NCBI GenBank assembly: GCA_964509385.1
Contig: CAZDXY010000015.1
Coordinates: forward strand, 2,953 to 26,952
Direction: 5' to 3'
DNA: 24,000 bases
Source of the DNA: an uncultured Rikenellaceae bacterium
GTDB taxonomy: Bacteria > Bacteroidota > Bacteroidia > Bacteroidales > Tenuifilaceae
Made by a program: the position numbers and the translations under genes. Under the pieces are notes generated by a model. It was not told where the DNA came from, made no database searches, and saw only the letters and a list, made by a program, of their open reading frames with translations. Position 1 is the stretch's first letter. Every line of letters begins with the position of its first letter. Below, one piece after another: positions 1,462 through 16,661 of this stretch.

Positions 1462-3567
1462 ATGAAAAAAGTAGTCATGGTATCCATTACATTCGGATTA
1501 TTACTGGGCATGGTATCCTGCCAGAAAGAGTCAAACCCCTTGCTAGCACCTTACAACACTCCTTTCAACATACCCCCTTTCGAAAAAATAAAGGTTGAGC
1601 ATTTCGAACCTGCATTCGTTGAGGGCATGAAACAGCATAAACTTGAGATTGAGGCCATTTTAATGGATAAAAATGAGCCAACGTTTGAGAATACTATACT
1701 TGCTCTTGAGTATAGTGGAAGGCTTCTTTCTAATGTAGCAAACATTTTTTACCCACTAAGTTCAGCTAAAACTAGCCCTGAATTTCAAACTATTGCACAA
1801 TTGATCGCTCCCATGTTAAGCGGTCATATGGATGATATAAATCTTAATCCTGAACTCTTCAAACGTATCAAGGCCGTTTACGATAATAAGGATGAACTTA
1901 ATTTGAATCCCGAGCAACAAAAGTTACTTGAAAAGATTTATGATGGGTTTGTTCGTGGAGGGGCAAATCTTTCAGAAGAAAATCAAGTTCGTTTTCGTGA
2001 GATCAACGAAAAATTATCGCCCCTTACCCTTCGTTTCGGAGACAATGTGCTTGCCGAAACCAATAGTTTCCAACTGGTAATTGATGATCCCGATGATTTA
2101 GTTGGTTTACCTGAATCCGTTATTGCAGCTGCTGCTGACAAAGCAAACAGCCCAGGACTAGAGGGAAAATGGGTATTTACTCTTCATAACCCCAGTTGGA
2201 TTCCTTTCTTGCAGTACGCCGAAAATAGAGAATTACGCGAAAAACTTTATCGTGGATATTTTATGCGAGGGAACAATAACAACGAATATGACAATAAAAA
2301 TATCATAAAAGAAATTGTTCCTCTGCGTATCGAACGTGCTCAGTTATTGGGTTACCAAAGTCATGCACATTTTGTGCTGGAGAACAATATGACTAAGAAT
2401 CCTGAAACGGTTGAAAATTTCTTATTAGAACTATGGAAACCATCCCTCAATCGTGCAAAAGTTGAAGCCTATGATATGCAAAGGATGATTGATAAGGAAA
2501 GTGAAAAATTTAAATTGGCATCATGGGATTGGTGGTACTACACAGAAAAAATTCGTAAGGAAAAATTCGACCTGGATGAAGAAATGCTAAAACCCTACTT
2601 TGAACTTGAAAACGTAAAAAAAGGTATCTTTCTTTTAACTGAAAAACTTTACGGTTTAAAATACGAGAAATTGACCAATGTTCCGGTTTATCATCCTGAG
2701 GCTGAGGTTTATGAGGTTAAAGATGTTAACGATAACCACATTGGAATACTTTTCATGGACTTCCATCCCCGTGACAGCAAAAGAGGCGGTGCATGGATGA
2801 CCAGCTTTAGAGATCAGTACATAACAAGAGAAGGAGAATTTATCTCCCCCATCATTACCATAGTTTGTAACTTCACTCGCCCTACGGGCGATACACCTGC
2901 CCTGCTCTCGCTTGATGAAGTGAGCACCTTCTTTCACGAATTTGGACATGCTCTTCACGGATTGCTATCAAAAGTTATGTATCCCCGGCTTGCAGGAACC
3001 AACGTTCCCAGGGATTTTGTTGAGCTACCATCTCAAATAATGGAAAACTGGTGTACCGATCCAGAGTTTCTAAAGATGTATGCTTTTCATTACCAAACAG
3101 GTGAAACCATACCCGATGAATTAATAAAAAAGATGGAAGCCAGCGGAACCTTTAACCAGGGTTTTATTACCACTGAATACCTAGCTGCAGCAATACTTGA
3201 CATGAAGTATCATTCATTAAAATCGATTGAATACCTTGACGTTTTAGATTTTGAGAAAAAATCGATGCAAAAAATCGGTCTTATCGACGAAATAATCCCC
3301 AGGTATCGCAGCACTTATTTTCAGCATATTTTCAGCGGAGGATACTCTAGCGGTTACTACAGCTATATATGGTCGGGTGTTCTTGACGCTGACGCATATG
3401 AAGCTTTTATAGAAACAGGGAATATCTTTGATCCAGAAACCGCTAAACGATTCCGCGAGTTTGTTCTTGAGAAGGGTGGCACTGAAGATGCTGAGGTTCT
3501 TTACAGAAAATTCCGTGGTGCTGATCCTAAACCAGAAGCACTTTTAAAAAGAAGAGGATTGATTTAA
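1462..3567 (+). CDS. dcp: M3-family zinc metallopeptidase, peptidyl-dipeptidase Dcp-like, predicted lipoprotein
   Basis: 701 aa. The HEFGH zinc motif is at nt 2935..2949 (STFFHEFGHALHGLL). Length and the C-terminal YSSGYYSYIWSGVLDADAY region are typical of Dcp/oligopeptidase A. The N-terminus has a lipobox-like LLGMVSC. Confidence 0.85.
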   Translation: MKKVVMVSITFGLLLGMVSCQKESNPLLAPYNTPFNIPPFEKIKVEHFEPAFVEGMKQHKLEIEAILMDKNEPTFENTILALEYSGRLLSNVANIFYPLSSAKTSPEFQTIAQLIAPMLSGHMDDINLNPELFKRIKAVYDNKDELNLNPEQQKLLEKIYDGFVRGGANLSEENQVRFREINEKLSPLTLRFGDNVLAETNSFQLVIDDPDDLVGLPESVIAAAADKANSPGLEGKWVFTLHNPSWIPFLQYAENRELREKLYRGYFMRGNNNNEYDNKNIIKEIVPLRIERAQLLGYQSHAHFVLENNMTKNPETVENFLLELWKPSLNRAKVEAYDMQRMIDKESEKFKLASWDWWYYTEKIRKEKFDLDEEMLKPYFELENVKKGIFLLTEKLYGLKYEKLTNVPVYHPEAEVYEVKDVNDNHIGILFMDFHPRDSKRGGAWMTSFRDQYITREGEFISPIITIVCNFTRPTGDTPALLSLDEVSTFFHEFGHALHGLLSKVMYPRLAGTNVPRDFVELPSQIMENWCTDPEFLKMYAFHYQTGETIPDELIKKMEASGTFNQGFITTEYLAAAILDMKYHSLKSIEYLDVLDFEKKSMQKIGLIDEIIPRYRSTYFQHIFSGGYSSGYYSYIWSGVLDADAYEAFIETGNIFDPETAKRFREFVLEKGGTEDAEVLYRKFRGADPKPEALLKRRGLI

Positions 3568-3664: not shown

Positions 3665-4903
3665 TTATTTTTTGAATGGCTGAATCTTTAAGTATGTAAG
3701 ACTCCTCCACACCCACTCGAAAGGACCAAAATGGAATCGTTTCAACCACCAAGCACTAAAAGGGATCTGCAGTCCGTAAATAATGATTGTCAGAATAATC
3801 CCCTGCCATATTTCAATCTTTCCGAATTGGCCTAATCCGTATGAAAGAAAAACAAATGTGCAGATTATTGAGTGCATCAGGTAGTTGGTGAGAGCCATTC
3901 GCCCTACAGGAGAAAGCCATTTTGTTAAAGTTCCAAGTTTTCCCTTTGATACTAATAGCACCACCACCGAAACGTAAAGAAGGCAGAAAGAAAAACCTCC
4001 CAACGAGTGTCCTAATGTGGAGAGGAACGACCAGACATCAGGATTCATTACCTGTGCATGTTGGAATGAGTATGTATAAGCAGTATTAGCTATCAACCCA
4101 ATGCCTAATCCCCACCAAAAAGCTTTACGGAAGAAGAGTAAATTCTCCATATAATTAGCAATCATTTTTTTTCGTGCAGCCCATGCTCCAAGCAGAAACA
4201 TGGCCATTACCATGGGGTAGAAGAACAGAACACCGGGTAAAATCGCCTTATACTCTTCAATTCTAATTGCGATTATTTCGTTGAATGAACCTTGAGAATA
4301 TGCAAGTGATGCACGGTCCACCAAATCGCTAATTGCATCAATACTTTGCTGAATTCCTACTTCCATGCCTTCCCTCGCCTGCGGAATTTGTGAAAAAAGG
4401 ACGAAAATGAGAACCATAAACCCCGTGAAAACCGAGGGGATTACACCTAGTCCAATGGCCCACCCAACCAGTCTTTTGTTTGATACCTTTCGGAAAAGAA
4501 CCAGCAGCAACCCTAAAAGACCATAGAAAACAAGGATATCGCCTGGCCATAATAGTACAACGTGCACAACGCCAAATAGGAACAGAAGGAATGCCCTTCT
4601 GGCAAAAACAGGGAGGATGTTCGATCCTTCACTAGTAGTTTTGTTGATGAAAATCCAGAAACCATATCCAAAAAGCATGGAAAACATAACGTAGAACTTT
4701 CCCTCGAAGAAGAACTTGATAAACGACTCCGACAAGATATGGACAAACGAAGCATCGGGTTTTGCTCCTTGCATCATCACGCTAAACGGTTGAAAGAATA
4801 ATGGCATATTCACCATTAGTATACCAAAAATGGCTAAACCTCGCAGAGTGTCAAGTAATGTTATTCTTTCAGTCTGATCAATGGGTGAAAAGGTATTTTT
4901 CAT
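3665..4903 (-). CDS. DUF418 / YeiB-like polytopic membrane protein
   Basis: 412 aa and multi-TM. N-terminal LDTLRGLAIFGILMVNMP and C-terminal GRMALTNYLMHS...RFHFGPFEWVWRSLTY are the characteristic YeiB/DUF418 motifs. Confidence 0.85.
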   Translation of the reverse strand: MKNTFSPIDQTERITLLDTLRGLAIFGILMVNMPLFFQPFSVMMQGAKPDASFVHILSESFIKFFFEGKFYVMFSMLFGYGFWIFINKTTSEGSNILPVFARRAFLLFLFGVVHVVLLWPGDILVFYGLLGLLLVLFRKVSNKRLVGWAIGLGVIPSVFTGFMVLIFVLFSQIPQAREGMEVGIQQSIDAISDLVDRASLAYSQGSFNEIIAIRIEEYKAILPGVLFFYPMVMAMFLLGAWAARKKMIANYMENLLFFRKAFWWGLGIGLIANTAYTYSFQHAQVMNPDVWSFLSTLGHSLGGFSFCLLYVSVVVLLVSKGKLGTLTKWLSPVGRMALTNYLMHSIICTFVFLSYGLGQFGKIEIWQGIILTIIIYGLQIPFSAWWLKRFHFGPFEWVWRSLTYLKIQPFKK

Positions 4904-4942
4904 GATAATTTTTTTAATAATTTAGGGTTGAATATTCACTTT

Positions 4943-4950
4943 TATTTTTG
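4943..4950 (+). promoter_or_regulatory. Candidate -7 box TATTTTTG far upstream of the TonB-dependent receptor operon
   Basis: Exact TAnnTTTG match. TTTA (not TTTG) lies 18 nt upstream. It would imply a leader of roughly 260 nt before ATG 5222. Speculative. Confidence 0.2.
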
Positions 4951-5221
4951 AAAAAAATTATTTGCATTTTTTTTAAATTTTCTAAATAAAAACTCGCCTT
5001 AAATTTTTACTATCCTCTCTTCATCAACATATTTAACAAAAAATAGATTCAAACGATTGTAAAAATAAACTAACTATTACCTTCGTAAAAAGAAAAAATT
5101 ACTAAACTTCTATTAAACTGAACCTACTTTTAGCATTCTAAATGATAGTGCTGTAAAATAATCCTATTCTCATAAGGTTTACCCAGTTAACAAAATGCTA
5201 ATTTATAGATAAATAAATAAT

Positions 5222-7921
5222 ATGTCATTTTTTTTTAGTCTAAGAAAGACTTTTACCGTTTTTTTATTCTTATTCTCTCAAATTTCTATTTCGCAATTTG
5301 CTTTTTCTCAGGATAGTAATAAACCTATACTGCAATTGCTTTTGGAATTACAACAAATGCACTCGCAGAAAATTTTATACAATTCAATTTGGTTTGAAGG
5401 AGACTCTGCCAGCGAAAGAATACTATCTCTTCCTCTTAATGAAGCGCTAAACGTCATGCTTTCTGATCAGAATATGGATGTTATTTCATTTCAACGGAAT
5501 TTAATTATTGTACCCAAAGAGTCTGCTCCATTATCACTTAACGAAATGCAGGATACTCGACATGTAATTGGGAACACAATAAAATACGGAAAGTATTCAA
5601 GAGCATCTGTCAACGGAAAAGTTGTTGATGGAGAAACCGGAGAACCACTAATAGGAGCAATCATTTACATTGAAAGTTTGGCACAAGGTACAAGCACAGA
5701 TATGAATGGAAATTACTCCATTGAACTTCCTGTAGGAGAACATCTCTTGAAGTTGTCGTACATAGGATATGGCGAATCTTTTCACCCAATACGACTACTT
5801 AGTCCTGGGGAATTAAATCTTGAAATTTTTGAGAAAAGTCATGCACTTGAAAGCGTAAGTATCTATGCAAAAAGGGAAGATTTAAATATATCCCAAACTC
5901 AAATGAGCATTGTTCGTATCGATGCAAAGTCTATTCGTTTACTTCCCACATCTCTTGGCGAAACAGATGTAATAAAAAGTATAGCGCTTATGCCTGGTGT
6001 TCAGTCGGTTGGAGAATTTGGCTCTGGCTTTAATGTTAGGGGTGGTAGTGCTGATCAAAACTTAATTCTTATTGAAGGAGTTCCCCTATTTAACTCATCC
6101 CATCTTTTTGGTTTAACGTCTCTTGTTAATCCAGACATGGTTAGCAGTATTACTCTAATAAAAGCAGGTATACCTGCAAAATTTGGAGAACGAGCCTCTT
6201 CTGTGATGGATATTCGCATTGGCGGTGGTAATGAAGGAAAATTTCGGGTTAATGGAGGTGTTGGTTTGTTAAACAGCAGGTTGAGCATTGAAACCCCTTT
6301 TCCTAGGAAAAAAGGTTATTTTTTAATTGGTGGCAGGTCGACTTACTCAAACTGGTTGCTCAATAAACTTCCCAACGAAGATCTGATGAATAGTTCAGCA
6401 CTTTTCTATGATATCAATGGGTTAATAACCTTTCCATTAAATTCTAACCATAGTATAACCATATTTGGCTACACCAGCTACGACTCTTTTTCGTTAAGTG
6501 ATAACATTGACTATAATTATTCAAGTAACCTGGCCTCTTTTAGATTGGCAGGGCACCTAACAAGCAAACTTCTATCCAACCTCACTTTAGGGTATAGTTC
6601 CTATAATTATGGAATGGATAACAACAACACAATTAATCCAATAAATGCAAATCGTTTCCAATCAGGAATATCGCATAACAGCCTTAAATGGAATCTGAAT
6701 TACTACAGGACCCCAGGTCATGCAATGGAATTTGGTATAAACACGATTTTATACGGAATAGAACCCGGTAAAATCATGCCTATTGGCATTCAGTCAACTG
6801 TAAATCAACACTCACTCGAAAAAGAGCAAGCCCTTGAACTTTCTCTATATTTTGGCAATACCATTGAAATTACCGAAGAGTTTAGTGCTGATATGGGCTT
6901 ACGACTATCGCAGTTCCTTAAATTAGGACCAGGAACCTCCCGCATATATAGTAACGATTTTCCTATGTCAGTTGTAAGCATAATTAATAGTCAGAACTAT
7001 GAGAAAAATGAAATTATGGCTTATCACATTGGCCTTGAGCCACGAATGGGACTAAGGTATCAGTTAAACCCAACCAGTTCATTTAAGTTAAGCTATAATA
7101 GGGGAACCCAATTTGTAAATCTTGTTTCGACAACTGCCATTTCTACTCCATCTGATGTTTGGTACTTAAGTAACGAACACTACGCTCCCACTTTAGTTGA
7201 TCAATTAGCATTGGGATTTTTCAAAAACTTTAGTAATAATGCTATCGAATCATCCATTGAATTATACTATAAAAATCTTCAGAACGTACTGGAAACCAAA
7301 AACAACGCTCAAATATTGATGAACACAATGCTTGAAGCTGATCTCATTGCTTGCAATGGTTATAGCTATGGCTTAGAATTATACTTTAAAAAGATTTCGG
7401 GAAATTTAACGGGTTGGATTAGTTATACTTTTTCCCAGTCCATGAGAAAAACTTCAGCCATTCATTCCGAAGAACAGATTAATGCCAATGAATATTTCCC
7501 ATCCAATTTCGATAGCCCTCACAATCTTGTGTTAAATAGTAACCTCAACCTTAGCCGACGTTGGAGAGTAGGCGCCTCATTTACTTACAATACAGGTAGA
7601 CCGATTACTTTACCAGAACTCTCCTATGGTATAAATGGTCACCAATTAATACACTATTCTGATCGGAATAAGTATCGGCTACCTGACTATCACAGGTTAG
7701 ATTTATCGTTAAGTTATGACGGATCACTAAGGCTCACAAAGAAATGGAAAAGCTTTTGGACTATTTCCGTAATTAACGTATACTCCCGCAAGAATATACA
7801 TTCCATATACTACGAAAAGACAACACCTTCTCCCATGAATAATTATCAAAAATACAGCCTTTATAAGCTAACAATAATTGGAAGGCCTTTACCAACACTT
7901 ACATACAACTTTACATTCTAA
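5222..7921 (+). CDS. TonB-dependent outer-membrane receptor with N-terminal STN-like extension and CarboxypepD_reg-like domain
   Basis: 899 aa with a signal peptide. An STN-like stretch spans roughly nt 5324..5516. The CarboxypepD_reg motif is VNGKVVDGETGEPLIGAIIYIE...TDMNGNYSIELPVGEHLLKLSYIGYG. Plug motifs are GETDVIKSIALMPGVQS, FNVRGGSADQNLILIEGVPLFNSSHLFG. The C-terminus is aromatic (TYNFTF). Confidence 0.88.
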   Translation: MSFFFSLRKTFTVFLFLFSQISISQFAFSQDSNKPILQLLLELQQMHSQKILYNSIWFEGDSASERILSLPLNEALNVMLSDQNMDVISFQRNLIIVPKESAPLSLNEMQDTRHVIGNTIKYGKYSRASVNGKVVDGETGEPLIGAIIYIESLAQGTSTDMNGNYSIELPVGEHLLKLSYIGYGESFHPIRLLSPGELNLEIFEKSHALESVSIYAKREDLNISQTQMSIVRIDAKSIRLLPTSLGETDVIKSIALMPGVQSVGEFGSGFNVRGGSADQNLILIEGVPLFNSSHLFGLTSLVNPDMVSSITLIKAGIPAKFGERASSVMDIRIGGGNEGKFRVNGGVGLLNSRLSIETPFPRKKGYFLIGGRSTYSNWLLNKLPNEDLMNSSALFYDINGLITFPLNSNHSITIFGYTSYDSFSLSDNIDYNYSSNLASFRLAGHLTSKLLSNLTLGYSSYNYGMDNNNTINPINANRFQSGISHNSLKWNLNYYRTPGHAMEFGINTILYGIEPGKIMPIGIQSTVNQHSLEKEQALELSLYFGNTIEITEEFSADMGLRLSQFLKLGPGTSRIYSNDFPMSVVSIINSQNYEKNEIMAYHIGLEPRMGLRYQLNPTSSFKLSYNRGTQFVNLVSTTAISTPSDVWYLSNEHYAPTLVDQLALGFFKNFSNNAIESSIELYYKNLQNVLETKNNAQILMNTMLEADLIACNGYSYGLELYFKKISGNLTGWISYTFSQSMRKTSAIHSEEQINANEYFPSNFDSPHNLVLNSNLNLSRRWRVGASFTYNTGRPITLPELSYGINGHQLIHYSDRNKYRLPDYHRLDLSLSYDGSLRLTKKWKSFWTISVINVYSRKNIHSIYYEKTTPSPMNNYQKYSLYKLTIIGRPLPTLTYNFTF

Positions 7922-7933
7922 TATTTAAAAAAA

Positions 7934-9022
7934 ATGACAATACCTAGAATAATTATAATATTGGTTTCAGCACTTTGTATTTTTCTTTATGCTTGCAGAG
8001 AGATTTACGAACCTACTATTGATATTAAAGGGAATGCTCTTGTTGTTCAGGGATTAATTACTGATCAACCTGGACCATATCACATTAAACTAACAACCAC
8101 AATTCCTTTCAACTCTGGACAAAAATCTGTTCCTGTTGAAGGCGCACAAGTTTCTGTAGATGACGATCAGGGTGCAACTTATATCTTCAGTGAGGTTTTT
8201 CCGGGTGAATATCGCTCATCAGAGACGATGATTGGAATGATTGGAAGAAGTTATACTTTAAATATACATACTCAGGATGGTAATAATTACACATCCTCAC
8301 CCCAAACAATGCTGCCAAGCATAGATATCTTATCAATAAAACCAGAAATAGCCATAAAAACTGAAGTTTATGAGGACGAGCTTGGCAATCTGGTTCTCAG
8401 GGAAATTCAGGGCGTCAATGCGATCCTTCAGGTGGATGAAAATTATGAAAACAATCCCATGATACGTTTCGATTCAAAGATCGTAGTACAATATGTTTAC
8501 CCTTCGGGTGAAGATCCACCTGAAGGACCCGGACCGTTATGGTATTGCTGGAAAATATACGAACAGGCACAAGGTATTTATAACATTAACTTTCCTACTG
8601 TCGATAATACTCCTGGAGATATTAGCAACACAGTTGTTGCTTTTATTCCTAGAAGATCGGTTAAGTATTATTCTCTTCCCTGGGATAGATTAATTCAAGG
8701 TATACTACTTAAAGTTTCTGTTTACACACTAAACCAAAACTCTTATCAATATTACTACGAAGTAATAAAACAGATTAATTCCGATGAAAGTTTATTTTCT
8801 CCTATTCCTTCACAAATAAATAGTAATATGAGATGTGTTAATGATCCCAATAAAATTGTAGTTGGGCATTTCGAAGCTTCTTCTGAAATAACGAATGGAT
8901 ATATTGTAAGGGATCGGTTTTATCCTGAGCAAGTAAATTTCGAACTGACAAATAAGCTGGATTCAATTCCCCCATCAAATTGTTTTGATAATGTTAAACC
9001 TGATTTTTGGGTAAATAACTAA
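7934..9022 (+). CDS. DUF4249-family lipoprotein
   Basis: 362 aa with a lipobox-like FLYAC. The N-terminal pattern ALVVQGLITDQPGPYHIKLTTTIPF...PVEGAQVSVDDDQGATYIFSE..PGEYRS...GRSYTLNIHTQDGNNYTS matches my recollection of the DUF4249 family, which typically follows CarboxypepD_reg TonB-dependent receptors. Starts 12 nt after the receptor stop. Confidence 0.72.
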   Translation: MTIPRIIIILVSALCIFLYACREIYEPTIDIKGNALVVQGLITDQPGPYHIKLTTTIPFNSGQKSVPVEGAQVSVDDDQGATYIFSEVFPGEYRSSETMIGMIGRSYTLNIHTQDGNNYTSSPQTMLPSIDILSIKPEIAIKTEVYEDELGNLVLREIQGVNAILQVDENYENNPMIRFDSKIVVQYVYPSGEDPPEGPGPLWYCWKIYEQAQGIYNINFPTVDNTPGDISNTVVAFIPRRSVKYYSLPWDRLIQGILLKVSVYTLNQNSYQYYYEVIKQINSDESLFSPIPSQINSNMRCVNDPNKIVVGHFEASSEITNGYIVRDRFYPEQVNFELTNKLDSIPPSNCFDNVKPDFWVNN

Positions 9023-9029
9023 TATTATT

Positions 9030-11312
9030 ATGCTAATTAATAAAACAATAATAACAAGTTTTCTAGTTATCTTCCTTTTAACCGATGGATTTTGCAATGC
9101 AAAATTTGCTCTTTCAGAATTTGTACCCAACGAAAATTTATATATACATACCGATAAAGATATTTACTTCTCGGGGGATAGAGTTTTTTTCAAAACCTAT
9201 CTAAACGTTGGAAAAGACGTTAACAATTCCCTAATAAGCAAAGTTTTATACATTGCCTCTTATGCTCCAAACGGAAGCATGATTGATAGCATTGAAATGT
9301 TCTCTCCAAATCTTTTTAATCATGGAAGTTTTTTCCTTCCCGATACTTTAAAAACTGGATTATATAGATTAGTTGGTTGGACAAATAATATGCTTATTAC
9401 AAATACGCCCTTTTTTGTTAAACAAATCATTGTGATAAACAGATTCGATGAAGATCCTATAAAAACCATTGGATTATACTGTCAAAAACCCATTGAAGTT
9501 ATTGTAGAAGGTGGTGGACTTACATATGGTATAGAAAATCAATTGGCTGTTCTTTACTACAATCAAGATTTCACTGAAAAGCATGCATATATAATTGAAA
9601 ATGATTCGGATACAACAACGACTTTTGAAATTAATGATTTAGGTTTCTCGATATTTTCTTTTACTCCTGAATCAAAAAAAGATTATTCCATTCACTTTCC
9701 AAAGAAAGATCCAATTAAAATCCCCTCAAATACTCTTGAAAAGAACTTATTAATGATTCGACAATCAGAAGGGGATCAAATTTCAGTGCTTGTTCAACCC
9801 TCAAAATCCACAAATAATGTTTTTATTAAAATCTCGCAAGGAAATGTAATCCTAAAAGAAAGCTATGTCGATTTAAAACAAACAGTCAATGAGTTTAAAT
9901 TTGATGCTGGTAAATTCCCTTTGGGGCTCCTAACCATTGCCCTTTTAGATTCAAACAGAGATGTTATAAAGGAGGAATTTTATGTTAATCGCATGAATTG
10001 TCAAGGCATTAAAGTCAATACAGATAAAGAAAATTATGGCACAAGGGAAAAGGTTAACCTAATATTTAACAAATCCATCCTTACAGCTGATATTGCATCT
10101 GCATCTCTATCGGTTACAAGGGATGAAACGCTTTTGGCAAATAACTCACCAAGCATTCATTCCTTCAATGAATTTGATAATAAAGAAAATCATTACTACG
10201 TAACAAATTACGCTATTAACTCTTTCGTAACCAAGGATTACTCATTAATACCTTCTCAAAGATTTCAGAATTTACAATTTGAGATGATTATTCCTGAAAA
10301 CCATGGTTCGATTTTAAGTGGAAAAGTTATTGACAAAACCTCAAGATTACCCATTTCTAGAGCAATTGTTTTTCTTTCCACTCAGGATACCATTGTTAAT
10401 TTGAAATATTCAGAAACATACCTAGATGGCTCTTTCTTCTTTCTAATGACCGATTACTATAAGAACAAGGGCATTTACCTTAGCATATATGATCCTTTGA
10501 ATTTGTATAATGCAGAAATAGTAATTAGAAATAAGTTTAATCCTCTACCCTATACACCAAACAAAATAATAGTACACAATAATCTATCTCAATATATTGA
10601 GGACACTAAAATAATAAAACGTGTTCAAAAATCTTTTGGAATAAATCATTTGCCACAAGAAAGTCATCGGTTAAAAGTAAAACAATCAATACCAACACTT
10701 TACCATAATCCTACCTTTAAATATAAAACATTAGATTATGTATCATTGGATAACTTTTCGGAAATAGCATACGAAATAATCCCTATACTTAGAATAAGGA
10801 AAGAGAAAGGGAAATTCACTGCAAGAATGATAAATTCAAGCACAAGGGAATTCTTCCCTCAGGAACCAGTAATTTTTCTAAATGGAGTCTACATGTCAAA
10901 TATTAATGACATTATACACCTATCATCAAAAGATATTAAATCGATTGAACTTATTAGTCATTCTAGCATCCTGGGAAATATTGAATTTAATGGAATCCTT
11001 TCGATTTTTACAAATGAACCTGCAGATAATATCTTCCAAAAAGACCATAAAAAGCCAGTGTATTTTAACATAGATAGGGATAAAATAAATTTCTTATCGC
11101 CAAAATACGACGATGATCAAAAAATAGATCAATATTTTCCTGATCTCAGAGAAACCATAACCTGGATTCCAAACCTTGAACTAATCGATGGCTTTCCATC
11201 GAATATCTCATTCTATACTAGTGATGTAGTGGGAAATTATTCAATTATTATCGAAGGAATTTTAATAAATGGAAAACCCTTCTCACAAAGAATACCTTTA
11301 ATTGTTAAATAA
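9030..11312 (+). CDS. Secreted hypothetical protein with MG2 (alpha-2-macroglobulin N-terminal)-like, CarboxypepD_reg-like and Plug-like segments; no beta-barrel
   Basis: 760 aa with a signal peptide. MG2-like: YIHTDKDIYFSGDRVFFKTYL...HGSFFLPDTLKTGLYRLVGW (~9138..9420). Second MG-like: IKVNTDKENYGTREKVNLIF (~10008..10140). CarboxypepD_reg-like: GSILSGKVIDKTSRLPISRAIVFLS...YLDGSFFF (~10305..10490). Plug-like: EPVIFLNGVYMSNINDIIHLSSKDIKSIELISHSSILGNIEFNGILSIFT (~10862..11018). It ends ...IPLIVK with no aromatic OMP terminus. Domain calls are motif-level only. Confidence 0.6.
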   Translation: MLINKTIITSFLVIFLLTDGFCNAKFALSEFVPNENLYIHTDKDIYFSGDRVFFKTYLNVGKDVNNSLISKVLYIASYAPNGSMIDSIEMFSPNLFNHGSFFLPDTLKTGLYRLVGWTNNMLITNTPFFVKQIIVINRFDEDPIKTIGLYCQKPIEVIVEGGGLTYGIENQLAVLYYNQDFTEKHAYIIENDSDTTTTFEINDLGFSIFSFTPESKKDYSIHFPKKDPIKIPSNTLEKNLLMIRQSEGDQISVLVQPSKSTNNVFIKISQGNVILKESYVDLKQTVNEFKFDAGKFPLGLLTIALLDSNRDVIKEEFYVNRMNCQGIKVNTDKENYGTREKVNLIFNKSILTADIASASLSVTRDETLLANNSPSIHSFNEFDNKENHYYVTNYAINSFVTKDYSLIPSQRFQNLQFEMIIPENHGSILSGKVIDKTSRLPISRAIVFLSTQDTIVNLKYSETYLDGSFFFLMTDYYKNKGIYLSIYDPLNLYNAEIVIRNKFNPLPYTPNKIIVHNNLSQYIEDTKIIKRVQKSFGINHLPQESHRLKVKQSIPTLYHNPTFKYKTLDYVSLDNFSEIAYEIIPILRIRKEKGKFTARMINSSTREFFPQEPVIFLNGVYMSNINDIIHLSSKDIKSIELISHSSILGNIEFNGILSIFTNEPADNIFQKDHKKPVYFNIDRDKINFLSPKYDDDQKIDQYFPDLRETITWIPNLELIDGFPSNISFYTSDVVGNYSIIIEGILINGKPFSQRIPLIVK

Positions 11313-11314
11313 AA

Positions 11315-12034
11315 ATGAGTAATAGAAAAATATTTTTGCCCCTAGCAATAAATTTGCTTTTTCAGATAATTGGTTTTACTCAAACTAATAATACCGTTGA
11401 AATAATTGAAAAATTGAATGAATCTCACCTTTTTGGTGAAATTGTTTACAAACAAAAACCCACAAAGGGTAGTCAACTCTTACTTGAAAGTTGGAGTGAG
11501 GGAACTGTAATCCTGAAAAATGGATTCATTTCAAATAATAATCTTTTAAACTATAACGGGTACATTGATCAAGTACTTTGGTTCAATTCATCAAAAGTTA
11601 GAACAGTTATCCTTGAAAAGGAAGCCATTCATGAATTTTCACTATTCGATACGAAAACAAAAGACACTTTAATTTTCAGAAATATTGAAGCAAAGGTACC
11701 ATTCTACAGTTTACCGCCTAGTTTTTTTGCTCAAGTATTATACGAAGGAAACATTGTCCTATTTGTTTTTAGACAGATTATTGATGCAGGTATTTATTCG
11801 TACCAAGAGAATAATAGCACTTTTGAAATTCCGATAGTAAAACCAAGAAATTTATACTTCATCAAACTAGCTAATAATGATGTTATTCCTATAAAGAAAA
11901 TCAACAAAAGATCAATTTTTAATGCCCTTCCTTCAGAAAAAGATCATATAAAAAAATTTATAAGTCATAACAAGTTTTCCATAAAGAATGAGAAAGATCT
12001 AATAAGAATTATCAACTTTCTTGATATCGAATAA
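11315..12034 (+). CDS. Small secreted hypothetical protein (recurrent Bacteroidota family, no named domain recognised)
   Basis: 239 aa with a signal peptide (LAINLLFQIIGFTQ). The pattern GSQLLLESWSEGTVILKNG...LLNYNGYIDQVLWF ... and the C-terminal K-rich tail ...KKFISHNKFSIKNEKDLIRIINFLD resemble uncharacterised Bacteroidota proteins I recall. Starts 2 nt after the upstream stop. Confidence 0.55.
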   Translation: MSNRKIFLPLAINLLFQIIGFTQTNNTVEIIEKLNESHLFGEIVYKQKPTKGSQLLLESWSEGTVILKNGFISNNNLLNYNGYIDQVLWFNSSKVRTVILEKEAIHEFSLFDTKTKDTLIFRNIEAKVPFYSLPPSFFAQVLYEGNIVLFVFRQIIDAGIYSYQENNSTFEIPIVKPRNLYFIKLANNDVIPIKKINKRSIFNALPSEKDHIKKFISHNKFSIKNEKDLIRIINFLDIE

Positions 12035-12051
12035 AAAAAATTTAAGAAAAA

Positions 12052-12083
12052 CTTGACATTTATGTTATATATTTCTAACTTTG
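12052..12083 (+). promoter_or_regulatory. Bacteroidota-type promoter for the membrane-protein/XRE bicistron
   Basis: cTTG (12052..12055) - N20 - TAACTTTG (12076..12083). The -7 box is an exact TAnnTTTG match, 34 nt before ATG 12117. Confidence 0.5.
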
Positions 12084-12102
12084 TGTTAGAATTTTATAAC
12101 AT
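12062..12102. promoter_or_regulatory. 41-bp imperfect palindrome (candidate operator) overlapping the -7 box
   Basis: The left arm is atgttatatatttctaac (12062..12079). The right arm is gttagaattttataacat (12085..12102). 16 of 18 positions are complementary, with a 5-nt centre tttgt. The inner 7 bp (ttctaac/gttagaa) are perfect. Confidence 0.5.
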
Positions 12103-12116
12103 TAAATCCAAAAAAA

Positions 12117-12515
12117 ATGAAAAGATCAACATTAATTTTTATCATTGCAGCACTTGTATTGATTACAAGTGCAATCTGGTTTTTCTTAAGCTATAAAGGG
12201 TCAAGTATTATGGAAAACTTCCATTTTCTTGTAATTACCCTTTTAGTTGTATTTGCTCTCTTCATTGGAGTTAAACGAATTTCAAGTGAAAAACGGGGTG
12301 AACCTAGTGAGGATGAAATGTCGAAAAAAGTGATGCAGAAAGCCGCTTCGCTTTCGTACTTCATTTCCCTGTATTTGTGGGTCTTCATGATCTACATCAA
12401 GGATAAAGTAACCATGGATGTTGAAGTGCTAATGGGTTCAGGAATTCTTGGTATGGCTGTAATCTTTGCGCTAAGTTGGCTCTACTTTAACTTTAGAGGT
12501 ATAAGAAATGGATAA
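12117..12515 (+). CDS. Small 4-TM membrane protein (DUF2178-like)
   Basis: 132 aa with four hydrophobic segments. The central charged loop [22 protein letters not shown] is reminiscent of DUF2178-type proteins that pair with short XRE regulators. Its stop overlaps the next gene's start. Confidence 0.6.
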
Positions 12516-12705
12516 TCGGATTAAAGAGCTGCGAGCCAGATTTAACCTTACCCAAGATGACCTTGCCAGAAAAGTAAATGTGCGAAGGGAAACCATTGTT
12601 TTTCTGGAGAAGGGTAAATATAACCCCTCACTTAAACTGGCATGGGATATCGCACAGGTTTTTGGCGAAAAAATCGAAGATATATTTTTATTTACAGAGG
12701 AATAA
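12508..12705 (+). CDS. Short XRE-family helix-turn-helix transcriptional regulator
   Basis: 65 aa. [58 protein letters not shown] is a canonical HTH_3/XRE (COG1476-like) sequence. There is an 8-nt overlap (ATGGATAA) with the upstream membrane-protein gene. Confidence 0.88.
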
Positions 12706-12706
12706 T

Positions 12707-12745
12707 TGTACCCGTCAGATCGCTTTTGTAGGTCTGACGGGTATA
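12707..12745. terminator. Bidirectional intrinsic terminator hairpin between the XRE gene (+) and lpdA (-)
   Basis: The stem tacccgtcagatc (12709..12721) pairs with ggtctgacgggta (12731..12743), with one G-U pair and a 9-nt loop gcttttgta. It sits between stops at 12705 (+) and 12750 (-). Confidence 0.65.
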
Positions 12746-12749
12746 TGCT

Positions 12750-14138
12750 TTACATATGAATCACCTCGCCATAAGCTGCAGCAGCAGCTTCCATAATGGC
12801 CTCACTCATGGTTGGATGTGGATGAATGCTTTTAATAAGTTCATGACCTGTAGTCTCAAGATTACGGGCTACAACCATCTCTGCAATCATTTCGGTTACA
12901 TTTCCACCAATCATGTGTGCCCCTAGCAATTCACCATATTTGGCGTCAAAAATAAGCTTCACAAAGCCATCGTGCATACCTGCTGCGGTTGCTTTTCCTG
13001 ATGCGGTAAAGGGAAACTTACCAACCTTAATCTCATATCCTGCCTCTTGGGCAGCCTTTTCGGTCATGCCCACCGATGAAACCTCGGGCATGGTGTAGGT
13101 ACAACCAGGGATATTCTTATAGTTTATTGGGTGCACATCCATTCCTGCAATCTTCTCAACACAAACAATACCCTCGGCAGATGCCACGTGAGCAAGTGCT
13201 GGGCCTGGAATGATATCACCAATTGCGTAAATTCCGTCAATGTTGGTACGATAATACTCATCAACCTTCACCCTGCCATTTTCAATGGCAACGCCTACCT
13301 CTTCAAGTCCAATCCCTTCAATGTTAGGAGTAATACCCACAGCCGATAATACGATCTCGGACTCAACAACTTCCTCGCCTTTCCTGGTTTTTATGGTAAC
13401 CCTGCAAAGATCACCGCTGGTGTCAACCGCTTCAACGGTTGAATCAGTCATTACCTTTATCTTTGCTTTTTTGAATGAACGCTCAAGGGTTTTGGAAACC
13501 TCTTCATCCTCAAGAGGTACAACATTTGGCATGAATTCAACTAAAGTAACCTCTGTGCCAATGGCATTGTAGAAGTATGCAAATTCACTACCAATTGCAC
13601 CAGAACCTACAACCACCATCGACTTAGGCTGTTTAGGAAGAGAAAGCGCTTGGCGGTAGCCAATAATTTTTCCTCCATCCTGCTTGAGATTGGGTAATTC
13701 CCGAGACCGTGCTCCTGTGGCAAAAATGATATGTTTGGCTGTATATTCTTGGTTTTTTCCATCCAAACCCGTTACGATAACAACACCCTTACTCTTTAGC
13801 TTACCAAAACCAGCTATAACATCAATCTTATTTTTTTTGAAAAGGAACTGTATACCCTTACTCATGCTATCAGCTACTCCACGGCTTCGTTCAATCATTT
13901 TTGCAAAATCGGGTTTTACATCGCTTGCCATAACACCATACTCAAGGGCATGCTGAGCATACTCGTAAACTTGAGCGCTTTTTAAAAGCGCCTTGGTAGG
14001 AATACATCCCCAATTGAGGCAGATTCCACCGAGGTTTTCCTTCTCCACAACTCCAACCTTTAAACCCAATTGGCTAGCTCTAATTGCTGCCACGTAACCC
14101 CCAGGGCCACTCCCAATAACAATAACATCGTAGTTCAT
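12750..14138 (-). CDS. lpdA: Dihydrolipoyl dehydrogenase (E3)
   Basis: 462 aa. It has the FAD motif VIVIGSGPGGYVAA, the redox-active disulfide GGICLNWGCIPTKALL, a second dinucleotide motif VVVGSGAIGSEFA and a C-terminal HPHPTMSE interface motif. Confidence 0.93.
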   Translation of the reverse strand: MNYDVIVIGSGPGGYVAAIRASQLGLKVGVVEKENLGGICLNWGCIPTKALLKSAQVYEYAQHALEYGVMASDVKPDFAKMIERSRGVADSMSKGIQFLFKKNKIDVIAGFGKLKSKGVVIVTGLDGKNQEYTAKHIIFATGARSRELPNLKQDGGKIIGYRQALSLPKQPKSMVVVGSGAIGSEFAYFYNAIGTEVTLVEFMPNVVPLEDEEVSKTLERSFKKAKIKVMTDSTVEAVDTSGDLCRVTIKTRKGEEVVESEIVLSAVGITPNIEGIGLEEVGVAIENGRVKVDEYYRTNIDGIYAIGDIIPGPALAHVASAEGIVCVEKIAGMDVHPINYKNIPGCTYTMPEVSSVGMTEKAAQEAGYEIKVGKFPFTASGKATAAGMHDGFVKLIFDAKYGELLGAHMIGGNVTEMIAEMVVARNLETTGHELIKSIHPHPTMSEAIMEAAAAAYGEVIHM

Positions 14139-14175
14139 GGTTATTTGCGTATTATTTTGTTCAAAATTTAGTTAA

Positions 14176-15018
14176 TTACAAATTAAATTGATTATGGTTG
14201 ATTTTTTCTCTTAAAAAACGAAAAAATCTAGCTATTAAAAAAATGATTACCAGCGAAATAATAATTGTTGCACCCGAAGGCACGTTCAGTCCATATGAAA
14301 TTAATAGTCCTACCAATGATCCAACAAAACCAATTAATACCGATGCGAATATAATGTTCTTAAATTTCTTAGTAAAAAGGTTTGTTATGGTTGGTGGTAC
14401 TGTGAGCAAAGAAATCAGAAGGATTATACCTACCAATCTAATGCTCAAAACAATGGTCATTGCTAAAAAAGCTTTAAGGATATAAGTAAAGAGTTTCTCT
14501 GGAATTTTCTGTGTTCTTGCAAAGTTTGGATCAAAAGCAAGGTAAAGTATTGGGCGATAAAAAATAATAAAGAACGATATCATTACTATGTCTAGTCCGA
14601 GCAATAAGTATATATCCTGTTTAGAAACAGTAAGAATTGATCCAAAAAGAAAGCTCATAAGGTTTGGAGCATATCCTGGGGTTAAAAAAACAAAGAAAAC
14701 ACCAATTGCCATACCCACTGACCAAAGCATACCAATTGCAGAGTCCTCACGCACCCTAAATTTGGTGGATAATACTTCTACTCCAAATGCAGTAATCACT
14801 GCGAAAACCATTGCCCCAAGAATAGGGTTTAATCCAAGGTAATATGCTATTCCAATACCACCAAAAGAAGCGTGTGTAATGCCACCGCTAAAGAAAACTA
14901 ACCTACGAGCTACGATGTAAGTACCAACCAACCCTGCAGCCACAGAAACCAGTAATGCTGCCCAAAAAGCATTTAATACAAATTGGTATTGAAGTATGTC
15001 TGAAAAAAAACTAAACAT
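14176..15018 (-). CDS. znuB: Metal (Zn/Mn-type) ABC transporter permease, ABC-3 family
   Basis: Polytopic membrane protein typical of ZnuB/TroC. I place the start at the internal ATG (MFSFFSDILQ..., 15018..15016) rather than the ORF-track 15093. The longer form would overlap the upstream ATPase gene by 61 nt and adds a non-hydrophobic Cys/His-rich leader. Metal specificity is inferred only from the neighbouring binding protein. Confidence 0.8.
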   Translation of the reverse strand: MFSFFSDILQYQFVLNAFWAALLVSVAAGLVGTYIVARRLVFFSGGITHASFGGIGIAYYLGLNPILGAMVFAVITAFGVEVLSTKFRVREDSAIGMLWSVGMAIGVFFVFLTPGYAPNLMSFLFGSILTVSKQDIYLLLGLDIVMISFFIIFYRPILYLAFDPNFARTQKIPEKLFTYILKAFLAMTIVLSIRLVGIILLISLLTVPPTITNLFTKKFKNIIFASVLIGFVGSLVGLLISYGLNVPSGATIIISLVIIFLIARFFRFLREKINHNQFNL

Positions 15019-15032
15019 ATTATCCAAATAAA

Positions 15033-15776
15033 TTAGTGCTTGGTTAAAACAGTATGAGGAACAGGTCCATGTGCTATGATTTGTATTGGGCAATCATAGG
15101 CAGCCAATTGTTCAGTGGTTATTAAATTTGATGGATGATAATGCAGGTGCCTGTTAACACAGGCAATAGTCTTAACATGAGAAGTTATGGTTCCCAAATC
15201 GTGTGATACCATTATTATGGCCATCTCCTTATTTAATTCCTTTAGCAATTCATAGAGTTCCTTTTCAAACTTATTGTCAACAAAAGTATTGGGTTCATCA
15301 AGTATTAATAGTCGAGGGTGTGAAACTAGTGCTCTGCTTAAAAAAACACGTTGCATTTGTCCTCCTGAAAGTTCACCGATTACTTTGTCCTTTAGGCTTT
15401 GGATTCCCAAACGGTTAAGAAGATCCAATGCCATTCGTTTATCCTGTGCGGTATACCTTCCACCAATTCCCTTTCTCCCCAATAAACCCGAAAGTACAAC
15501 TTCCATAACCGAGATGGGAAATTTCTTATCTATTCCAACCACCTGAGGAAGATAGCCAAAAATAGTATCATTTGGATTAAGCTTAAAAAATTCAACTGAA
15601 CCTTTTTTTGGTTTTAGCTCTCCTAATATCAACTTCAAAAGGGTGGTTTTTCCTCCGCCATTTGGACCAATAACACCAACAAAATCGAAATCGGAGATTA
15701 CTAAATTAACATCTCTAAGAATCAATTCATCGTCGTAGCCAACCGATGCTGAAGTAATTTCTAGTATTTTACCCAT
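15033..15776 (-). CDS. znuC: Metal ABC transporter ATP-binding protein
   Basis: 247 aa with Walker A GPNGGGKTT, signature LSGGQMQRV and Walker B LLILDEP. Flanked by cognate binding-protein and permease genes. Confidence 0.88.
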   Translation of the reverse strand: MGKILEITSASVGYDDELILRDVNLVISDFDFVGVIGPNGGGKTTLLKLILGELKPKKGSVEFFKLNPNDTIFGYLPQVVGIDKKFPISVMEVVLSGLLGRKGIGGRYTAQDKRMALDLLNRLGIQSLKDKVIGELSGGQMQRVFLSRALVSHPRLLILDEPNTFVDNKFEKELYELLKELNKEMAIIMVSHDLGTITSHVKTIACVNRHLHYHPSNLITTEQLAAYDCPIQIIAHGPVPHTVLTKH

Positions 15777-15782
15777 TATAAA

Positions 15783-16661
15783 TTAGTTTCCGTTTAAAGC
15801 ATCCTTAAAAAGATCAGCTGTAAGAAACATGTTGCTTAGCCAATTATAATCTAGCGGATCAATCACAACTACTTTACTCCCAATGTCATCTGCAATTGTT
15901 TTCGCCATACTCGCATCAAACTCTTTCTGAATAAAAATGGTTTTTACACCTTCGTTTTTTGCATCTTTCAAAACCGATTTCATATGCTTCATGGATGGAG
16001 ATTTACCATCTTCTTCCAATGAAACCTGCACCAAACCATAATCCCTTGCAAAATAGGTGAATGCAGGGTGAAAAATGAAAAACTTATTTGTAGAAACATC
16101 CTGAAAAGAACTTTTCAAATATGAGTCTAAACTATCAATTTCAGCAATAAATAATTGGGTATTTGCTCTAAAAACTGAATCATTCTTAGGAAAAAGCTCG
16201 GAAAGGGTAATGTATATGGAATTCACCATTTTTTTTACCTCAACTGGCGATAGCCAAACATGCGGATCAAAACCGTGGCTGTGTGAATGGTCATGATGAA
16301 TACATTGTCCCTCGATCAGATTAAACTCGTTGGAGTGATTGATAAAAAGAGTATAAATGTTATTCCCTTGTATTTTTTTTAGTGTAGTTTTCTCAAAATC
16401 TAATAGTCCAAGCGAAAAATAGGCTAAAGAATTACTTAAGGTTTTAATTTGAAATGGTGTGGGCTCATAAGTTTCGGGGCTAGAACCTGAAGGTACCATT
16501 ACACTAACATTTAACAATGTATCGGCTATACGTTCAACAAAATACTTCTGGGGTAAAATGCTTACCATTACATTGGGCTTATCAAAACCAGATGGTTGAT
16601 AAGTACAACCAGAACTTAGCAATACTATTATAAAAGCAATAAGGGTCAAACTTCTTAACAT
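15783..16661 (-). CDS. znuA: Metal ABC transporter substrate-binding lipoprotein (ZnuA/TroA cluster-9 family), probably zinc
   Basis: 292 aa with lipobox LLSSGC. The His-rich segment CIHHDHSHSHGFDPHVWLSP includes the conserved DPHxW motif. Confidence 0.82.
   Translation of the reverse strand: MLRSLTLIAFIIVLLSSGCTYQPSGFDKPNVMVSILPQKYFVERIADTLLNVSVMVPSGSSPETYEPTPFQIKTLSNSLAYFSLGLLDFEKTTLKKIQGNNIYTLFINHSNEFNLIEGQCIHHDHSHSHGFDPHVWLSPVEVKKMVNSIYITLSELFPKNDSVFRANTQLFIAEIDSLDSYLKSSFQDVSTNKFFIFHPAFTYFARDYGLVQVSLEEDGKSPSMKHMKSVLKDAKNEGVKTIFIQKEFDASMAKTIADDIGSKVVVIDPLDYNWLSNMFLTADLFKDALNGN

Follow-up and report, generated by a model that had tools for sequence, protein, structure and literature searches.

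A conserved four-gene operon links a TonB-dependent receptor and a DUF4249 lipoprotein to two exported, probably periplasmic proteins

We analyzed a 24,000-nt stretch of contig CAZDXY010000015.1 (GenBank assembly GCA_964509385.1, from an uncultured Rikenellaceae bacterium), which we call the window, and concentrated on four adjacent genes at 5222–12034 on its forward strand. In order, they encode a TonB-dependent transporter (TBDT, here also called the receptor), a lipoprotein of the DUF4249 family, an exported multidomain protein without a beta-barrel (G3) and a smaller exported protein (G4). There is strong evidence that this four-gene set is a functional module and that its co-occurrence goes beyond chance. 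Our favored reading, held with moderate confidence, is a TonB-dependent system of four components for uptake across the outer membrane; the roles that we propose for the individual components are held with much lower confidence. The core pair of TBDT and DUF4249 protein is known; as far as the literature shows, the conserved addition of a barrel-less macroglobulin (MG)/Plug protein and a member of an unannotated family is undescribed. Our literature searches returned nothing on G3-like or G4-like partners, on the function of barrel-less Plug proteins, or on DUF4249 beyond the papers of Price and colleagues cited below.

The evidence for a module comes mainly from other genomes. We called genes around database homologues and ran our own hidden Markov models (HMMs) for the four families on all fetched loci; E-values from these local HMMs refer to small databases. 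The order TBDT–DUF4249–G3–G4 is found in the window and in Rikenellaceae/Bacteroidales relatives (L001–L004 and L010–L015, G3 identity 35–81%). P0012, a non-syntenic locus with unrelated flanks, has TBDT–DUF4249–G3 and then an open reading frame (ORF) cut by the contig end, which is a putative G4 by position only. Other loci are rearranged, to G4–TBDT–DUF4249–G3 with one or two DUF4249 genes (L006, L040), to DUF4249–G4–TBDT–G3 with two to four DUF4249 genes (L007, L016, L017), or to G4–TBDT–G3 where the contig is cut upstream (L018). One locus, L014, has the order G4'–TBDT–DUF4249–G3–G4 and bridges the first two arrangements. Counting these loci, all four families occur together in three or more gene orders and six or more unrelated neighborhoods, with identities of 22–35%, and the flanking genes differ between the order groups. 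The TBDT–DUF4249 pairing is kept in every related locus, and G3 adjoins the TBDT, DUF4249 and G4 genes in every locus except for distant relatives in L008, L009 and L041.

Between the window and the rearranged loci (types B and C, the window type being type A), identity is 32–35% for the TBDT, 23–30% for DUF4249, 22–24% for G3 and about 23–25% for G4, and the four proteins diverge in step. Co-evolution and co-localization of G3 and G4 with the receptor/DUF4249 pair through several rearrangements are directly supported by these comparisons of sequence. Since the four families are kept together despite the shuffling of gene order at such divergence, we conclude that they share a function and make up one module. 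The original prediction, made from the window alone, had placed genes 3 and 4 with the receptor/DUF4249 pair, and the claim survived this check of conserved co-occurrence.

The layout of the operon in the window agrees with a module of this kind. The coordinates exactly confirm the earlier description of four same-strand genes, with gaps of 12, 7 and 2 nt, and of an export signal in each of the four proteins. As read from the sequence, these N-terminal signals end in signal peptidase I sites in the receptor, G3 and G4 and in a lipobox in the DUF4249 protein. No terminator-like site was found at the three junctions in a sigma-70 promoter and terminator scan, and in homologous loci the junctions are often 0 nt or overlapping (for example 12283/12284 in L004 and 3626/3626 in L012). 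The spacing supports one tightly coupled unit, as the junctions would be too short for promoters. Taken as a whole, the promoter and terminator scan gave counts equal to the shuffled expectation, and we set it aside as uninformative for a Bacteroidota genome. The coordinates of the genes and of their domains are collected in Table 1.

Table 1. Genes, predicted domains and upstream region of the operon, in window positions.
Feature	Position	Strand	Remarks
AT-rich 5' region without ORF	4904–5221	none	318 bp
Gene 1, TBDT	5222–7921	+	899 aa
STN/FecR_C-like N-terminal extension of receptor	5324–5521	+	about residues 35–100, upstream of CarboxypepD_reg
CarboxypepD_reg domain of receptor (N-terminal-extension-type, Ig-like)	5609–5854	+	residues 130–211
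Plug domain of receptor	5954–6199	+	residues 245–326
Gene 2, DUF4249 lipoprotein	7934–9022	+	362 aa
Gene 3 (G3), exported barrel-less multidomain protein	9030–11312	+	760 aa
Chain of macroglobulin-like beta-sandwich domains of G3	9135–10124	+	about residues 36–365
CarboxypepD_reg-like domain of G3	10311–10529	+	about residues 428–500
Plug-like domain of G3	10692–11030	+	about residues 555–667; best-modelled part, pLDDT 85–91
C-terminal beta-sandwich of G3	11142–11309	+	residues 705–760; conserved D705-R707-W712-P714 motif
Gene 4 (G4), exported protein	11315–12034	+	239 aa

Gene 1 has the features of a TBDT outside of the SusC family, with a predicted domain order of STN-like, CarboxypepD_reg, Plug and barrel. 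Its signal peptide would be cleaved between MSFFFSLRKTFTVFLFLFSQISISQFAFS and QD. Pfam detects CarbopepD_reg_2 (E=5.7e-16) and Plug (PF07715, 40.3 bits against a gathering threshold, GA, of 23.9), and a candidate TonB box picked out by eye only, ALESVSIYA, lies directly upstream of the Plug domain. The window receptor itself has no Pfam match to a barrel family. Its L013 homologue, which is 62% identical and can be aligned over the full length, matches TonB_dep_Rec_b-barrel (PF00593) with E=1e-21, as does the L006 homologue with E=2.5e-22. About 570 residues follow the plug in the window receptor, which ends in ...YNFTF, so that a 22-strand barrel is assigned to it via its homologues. Against TIGR04056 the receptor scores 72.8 bits and the cutoff is 368.25, which places it outside the SusC family. 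There is no match to SusD, carbohydrate-active enzyme (CAZyme) or glycoside hydrolase families among the four genes or elsewhere in the window, and together with the TIGR04056 score this bears out the earlier statement that the locus is not a polysaccharide utilization locus (PUL).

Gene 2 belongs to DUF4249 (PF14054, E=6.5e-27, 95.2 bits), with a lipobox at Cys21 (LYA/C, the slash marking cleavage). The acidic residue at position +2 after this cysteine is kept across DUF4249 homologues (C-R-E, C-K-E, C-V-E, C-R-D, C-T-E) as read without a scoring matrix. The pairing of the two genes was taken to be uncharacterized in the original prediction, which the literature corrects. DUF4249, represented by BT2173, was proposed in 2023 as one of six families of alternative lids, and the same study links BT2172 and BT2173 by cofitness and by AlphaFold-Multimer contacts, predicted with high confidence, at the outer face of BT2172 (Price, Deutschbauer & Arkin 2023, bioRxiv 10.1101/2023.03.17.533168). 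The conserved operon has been described as well, with receptors of the BT2172 type almost always adjoining a DUF4249 gene in dozens of genera (Price & Arkin 2024, fast.genomics, PLoS One, PMC11003636). By homology, the receptor and its lid make up an outer-membrane import unit. We call the gene 2 product a putative surface lid of the receptor because of the published cofitness and modelling for BT2172/BT2173, which are not structures.

The rearranged loci carry two to four DUF4249 genes each (L007 370–4002, L016 7338–9852, L017 7354–9846, L006 5642–8013). Several copies per locus are consistent with a substrate-binding surface component, and resemble the multiple SusD and surface glycan-binding protein genes in PULs.

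The N-terminus of the receptor bears on a different reading of the locus. About 100 residues precede its CarboxypepD_reg domain, and the equivalent stretch in homologues of 32% identity reaches the Pfam thresholds for STN (L006, 34.4 bits for the isolated N-terminus and 28.6 for the whole protein; L040, 28.5; GA 28.4) and FecR_C (25–30.8 bits in L006, L040 and L016; GA 24.4). An extension of similar length is present in all ten of the receptors examined. The operon could therefore be mainly a sensor, in which the STN-like domain reports substrate to G3 and G4, these replace the periplasmic part of a FecR-type anti-sigma factor, and the regulator is encoded elsewhere. STN domains are established contacts of anti-sigma factors (Gray et al. 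2021, PMC7782687), BT2172 has been described as a signal-transduction TBDT, and neither the window nor any related locus has an extracytoplasmic function (ECF) sigma gene or an anti-sigma gene, which would fit a replacement of this kind; in L006 the nearest sigma gene is a housekeeping-type sigma-70 about 2 kb away. However, apart from the signal peptide neither G3 nor G4 has a transmembrane segment, and they could not reach the cytoplasm alone, and no regulator is conserved in the neighborhood (a small-gene pair downstream in the window, DUF2178 and XRE, is missing in L001 and L003). The domain order also disagrees. In the signalling SusCs the N-terminal extension (NTE) is reported to come before the STN domain in all cases (Gray et al. 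2021, PMC7782687), and the receptors studied here have the reverse, STN-like and then NTE. We consider a signalling variant unlikely. The earlier claim that this is not a trans-envelope signalling locus stands as far as the missing sigma/anti-sigma pair goes, and is weakened by the STN/FecR_C-like domain at Pfam thresholds in the homologues.

By its profiles and structural model, G3 has no barrel and consists of macroglobulin-like domains in a chain, with CarboxypepD_reg and Plug-like domains after them. MG2 is matched in fifteen of sixteen family members (best E=1.4e-10); the window protein itself is a weak match at 22.3 bits, under the GA of 32.8. The AlphaFold2 (AF2) model of G3 has a mean pLDDT of 69, and its top Foldseek matches in the PDB are complement C3/C4 and bacterial alpha-2-macroglobulins (E about 1e-11). 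Some members are short forms of about 575 aa that lack profile positions ~144–287. CarboxypepD_reg (PF13620) is found in 6/16 members with a best E of 1e-8, along with a PDB profile match to NOMO2. In an hhalign comparison of the C-terminal half of G3 with the N-terminus of the operon receptor, the alignment covered just the first 20 CarboxypepD_reg residues. Pfam Plug is weak in the family (two of sixteen members), and we call the domain Plug-like because its family HMM matches the plugs of SusC-like proteins (L037 177–235, i-E 8e-7; L021, 9e-6) and because the family profile has marginal PDB matches to the plug regions of FyuA (4epa 78–166) and a SusC (6zlt_B 66–151). Apart from such marginal domain-level matches to G3, sequence and profile searches of the PDB gave no significant relatives of DUF4249, G3 or G4. 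The earlier label for gene 3, a barrel-less MG2/Plug-like protein, agrees with the family MG2, Foldseek, plug HMM and PDB profile matches.

With complement and alpha-2-macroglobulins as the best structural matches and MG2 in nearly every member, G3 might be thought of as a periplasmic protease trap or defence protein that merely shares the operon, with G4 as an unrelated passenger. Several features speak against this. There is no CxEQ thioester motif in the window G3 (one of the sixteen homologues has it, by chance), no match to A2M, TED or A2M_recep in G3, and no lipoprotein anchor, and at 760 aa, or ~575 aa in the short forms, the protein is too small for a bait region, thioester or receptor-binding domain. 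The linkage with TBDT, DUF4249 and G4, conserved through changes of gene order, also argues against passengers, so we regard a trap as very unlikely.

A G3-like architecture occurs elsewhere in L041, where three tandem G3-like MG2 proteins of 917–983 aa (5631–14223) lie downstream of VWA and AAA_5 (MoxR-like) genes, with an ECF sigma/RskA pair close by. It is another system that shares the macroglobulin-chain architecture.

G4 belongs to a large family without annotation. It has no match in Pfam, NCBIfam or PDB sequences, and an exhaustive search with its profile found 6362 cluster representatives at E<=1e-3, 1948 of them at E<=1e-10. Of 19 distinct family representatives that we scanned, not one matched Pfam within its G4 domain. 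The signal ends in ...IIGFT/Q, with a glutamine (Gln23) shared by 90% or more of 75 family members. An AF2 model from the 75 sequences (pLDDT 93) predicts a beta-rich body at residues 41–193 and then three C-terminal helices, and a Foldseek search with it gave no PDB match below E=0.05. The near-invariant positions are the glutamine after the cleavage site and Gly and Phe residues only, with no conserved polar or catalytic residues, and for this reason G4 fits a binding or scaffold protein better than an enzyme.

Distant relatives of G4 are found next to other receptors. A G4-like gene lies directly after SusC/SusD pairs in three independent groups (L019 and L021–L024; L029; L037 and L038), and in L037 (7599–8570) the G4 domain is fused behind a CarboxypepD_reg domain in a 323-aa protein that follows SusC, SusD and a BT_3987-like gene. 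These neighbors and the fusion tie the G4 fold to the periplasmic modules of TBDTs. A metagenome scan seeded with a distant G4 branch returned 21 loci, and STN-TBDT, DUF4249 and G3 were present in none of the 21. We conclude that G4 is a broad family with a recurrent but non-exclusive link to TonB-dependent receptors. The domain also occurs behind a SASA sialate-O-acetylesterase-type domain in P0031 (724 aa). Besides the G4 that closes the operon, two of the loci have a second, more diverged G4 paralogue shortly before the receptor (L013 1280–2038, minus strand; L014 5281–6015, plus strand; E about 1e-14 to 1e-15 against the family HMM).

A lipobox and the C-terminal domain of the type IX secretion system (T9SS) are the two known routes to the cell surface in Bacteroidota. 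G3 has a hydrophobic N-terminus with no lipobox, and its homologues end in signal peptidase I sites such as VDA/QN. Across both families the N-termini have no conserved lipobox cysteine and finish with a signal peptidase I site, with Q or N next. Neither G3 nor G4 matched TIGR04183 at E<=0.1, and Por_Secre_tail was seen in one of sixteen G3 members with an E of 0.38. With signal peptidase I signals but no lipobox and no T9SS domain, G3 and G4 are probably periplasmic and not surface capture proteins. The original prediction of a surface capture apparatus is therefore unlikely to hold for these two genes, which have no lipobox and no T9SS C-terminal domain.

One way around this would be for the receptor to work as an export machine that moves G3 and/or G4 to the cell surface, where they would form a capture complex with the DUF4249 protein, much as the original prediction pictured it. 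Sec takes G3 and G4 out of the cytoplasm, and no other route is known by which they could cross the outer membrane; PF25183 (OMP_b-brl_4) also matches the L006 and L013 receptor homologues. There is a precedent, too, for secretion that depends on a TBDT with an N-terminal CarboxypepD_reg domain, as proposed for Oar and the protease PopC in Myxococcus (PMC6434023). This is a single precedent from another phylum, though, and a multidomain protein of 760 aa is large for a plugged 22-strand barrel. Nothing in the sequences of G3 and G4 indicates surface exposure, and CarboxypepD_reg and Plug-like modules are periplasmic in every TBDT studied. Export of this kind seems to us quite improbable.

In the uptake system that we favor, G3 and G4 would stay in the periplasm and dock on the receptor. 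The likeliest site would be its STN-like and CarboxypepD_reg domains, for which there is no anti-sigma partner at these loci. We suggest a periplasmic assembly of such modules because G3 has CarboxypepD_reg and Plug-like modules and a relative of G4 is fused to CarboxypepD_reg. G3 could serve as a rigid macroglobulin-domain scaffold or as a gating element with its own CarboxypepD_reg and Plug-like modules, and if a component receives the imported molecule in the periplasm, as acceptor or adaptor, G4 would be the best candidate.

A further step, which we offer tentatively and consider less likely than not, is that G3 and G4 represent a previously unrecognized class of periplasmic TBDT partners that dock on STN/CarboxypepD_reg domains in place of an anti-sigma factor. 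Such partners might gate the access of TonB or take over the cargo in the periplasm, with the G3 scaffold carrying a free Plug-like module and G4 bringing a fold without a solved relative. The export of G3 and G4 by the receptor, discussed above, would be a more radical version of this proposal. If it is true, this class could be a general missing periplasmic component of outer-membrane import in Bacteroidota. We raise this because G4-like proteins follow SusC/SusD pairs and because of the one CarboxypepD_reg fusion.

Several points weigh against our reading of the operon. The N-terminus of the window receptor itself gives no Pfam match to STN, being too diverged to score. An hhalign comparison of the Plug-like region of G3 with the plug of the operon's own receptor gave a probability of only 4–11%. 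Members of the broad G4 superfamily are also found outside TBDT loci, some of them with the GTPase genes era and der on either side and others among unrelated genes; distant G3-like proteins likewise stand alone (L008, L009) or beside VWA and AAA_5 genes (L041). Because the type A loci are syntenic, we count them as a single lineage, and our picture of the size and spread of the G3 family comes only from 19 hits of a word-indexed search and 6 genomes reached by a pattern scan. Finally, it is from missing signals that we place G3 and G4 in the periplasm.

As to the cargo, a glycan is not indicated, because there are no linked CAZymes. The only hint, a weak one, may point to peptides: an exported lipoprotein of the M3 oligopeptidase type, whose association with the operon is seen solely in the Rikenellaceae synteny group. 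In the window this gene lies at 1462–3567 on the plus strand (PF01432, E=8.6e-134) and has a lipoprotein signal, …LLLGMVS/C-QKE, that marks it for export. In L001 (1719–3827) and L003 (1744–3831) the receptor gene follows it directly on the same strand; in the window and L004 the two are separated by a DUF418 gene on the opposite strand.

Zinc would be another candidate, with the operon as the receptor for a nearby znuABC-type transporter. ZnuA, ABC-3 and ABC_tran genes lie at 14176–16661, and the same neighborhood is found in L001, L003 and L004. The transporter genes are on the opposite strand, however, with lpdA and other genes in between, and they are absent from all type B and type C loci. 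No palindromic operator is common to the regions upstream of the TBDT and znuA; our search for a shared Zur/Fur-type operator found only pseudo-palindromes in A/T runs and was dropped. A zinc receptor is thus most improbable. The earlier statement that the set contains no inner-membrane transporter holds for the four genes, with the znuABC-type system 2 kb downstream on the other strand. This system (minus strand) and a TPR-SpoIIE phosphatase gene at 16868–19414 (plus strand) diverge from a 206-bp AT-rich spacer. As annotated from a TTG start, the znuB ORF (14176–15093) overlaps znuC by 61 nt, and its true start is probably further downstream.

The region upstream of the receptor (4904–5221) presumably holds the promoter and leader of the operon. 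It has a GC content of 0.21 and no internal ORF of at least 25 aa, and so it fits the earlier description of a 318-bp ORF-free AT-rich region. A search for TAnnTTTG, the Bacteroidota-type -7 motif, found a single site in this region, TATTTTTG at 4943, where about 0.2 would be expected by chance; this is weak evidence. The site is 278 nt before the receptor ATG and would imply a long leader. In the L004 ortholog the 5' region has 83% identity to that of the window, about the level of coding DNA, and the long identical blocks include ATAGATTCAAACG, AAACTTCTATTAAACTG, TTAGCATTCTAAAT and AAAATAATCCTATTCTCAT. The sequence ATTAAAC…TCTAA is kept in L001 and L003 also, and only short motifs survive in more distant loci. 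We considered a riboswitch or leader RNA upstream of the operon and rejected it, as Rfam gave no match at gathering thresholds in the whole window and none at E<=1 over 4850–5300.

Downstream of the operon, an 82-bp spacer (12035–12116) contains the palindrome TTCTAAC-N5-GTTAGAA, as had been noted from the window alone, and another TAnnTTTG motif, TAACTTTG. A DUF2178-like small membrane protein follows at 12117–12515 (plus strand) and overlaps an XRE/HTH_3 regulator (about 12515–12700). This pair, preceded by the palindrome and TAACTTTG, is present in L004 and absent in L001 and L003, and for that reason we treat it as a separate cassette, which is probably autoregulated.

The G+C contrast that had been sampled by hand is confirmed by a computed profile, with 0.29–0.32 over 9000–12000 (genes 3 and 4) and 0.42–0.46 in lpdA. 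Per gene, the values are 0.363, 0.353, 0.306 and 0.285 for genes 1–4, compared with 0.441 for lpdA and 0.361 for the whole window. GC3, the value for third codon positions, is 0.24–0.25 in genes 2–4 and 0.28–0.43 elsewhere. We do not take this as a sign of foreign origin because the contrast is too modest and the genes are syntenic across relatives.

Bacteroidota have dozens to more than 100 TBDTs per genome, and these shape which nutrients are usable by gut and environmental members. Structural work has so far dealt mainly with their outer face, in the form of SusD lids, surface glycan-binding proteins and the alternative lids of Price et al. The operon described here offers concrete candidates for what periplasmic NTE and STN domains bind where there is no anti-sigma factor. 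It also gives a first context for a family of ~6,400 clusters (at 50% identity) with no Pfam or NCBIfam coverage, and for the "barrel-less Plug" proteins.

Parts of the operon resemble several known systems. Like the bacterial alpha-2-macroglobulins (E. coli ECAM/YfhM and Salmonella A2M), G3 is a chain of MG beta-sandwiches exported to the periplasm; it differs in having no thioester, bait region, thioester or receptor-binding domains or lipid anchor, and in having CarboxypepD_reg and Plug-like domains. By description only, G3 can also be likened to BT1139, BT4200 and BT4324 of B. thetaiotaomicron, Plug proteins that lack a barrel and that Price et al. set aside (2023, bioRxiv 10.1101/2023.03.17.533168); these too are exported and have a Plug domain and no beta-barrel. 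Oar and PopC of Myxococcus xanthus share with the operon a CarboxypepD_reg TBDT tied to a protein that Sec exports and for which there is no further export route, but they come from another phylum and are described without DUF4249, G3 or G4 (PMC6434023). FecA/FecR/FecI receptors and STN-bearing SusCs have an STN/FecR_C-like domain at the periplasmic N-terminus of the receptor, as is seen here in homologues of the window receptor; in our loci there is no ECF sigma/anti-sigma pair, and the STN-like domain comes before the NTE, unlike what is reported for the signalling SusCs.

The closest likeness is to BT2172/BT2173 of B. thetaiotaomicron, where a non-SusC TBDT is followed on the same strand by a DUF4249 lipoprotein, in a pairing restricted to Bacteroidota, and where BT2172 is described as carrying a signalling-type N-terminal domain, as in this receptor family. 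The published module has two genes and no mention of a G3-like or G4-like partner, a comparison that we made by description only. With the SusCD/RagAB "pedal-bin" transporters and utilisomes, our operon differs in that the receptor is not of the SusC family, there is no SusD, glycoside hydrolase or surface glycan-binding lipoprotein, and the extra proteins are not lipoproteins. What they have in common is a TonB-dependent barrel with a surface lipoprotein lid, an NTE (CarboxypepD_reg) and accessory proteins encoded in the operon, and distant relatives of G4 follow SusC/SusD pairs.

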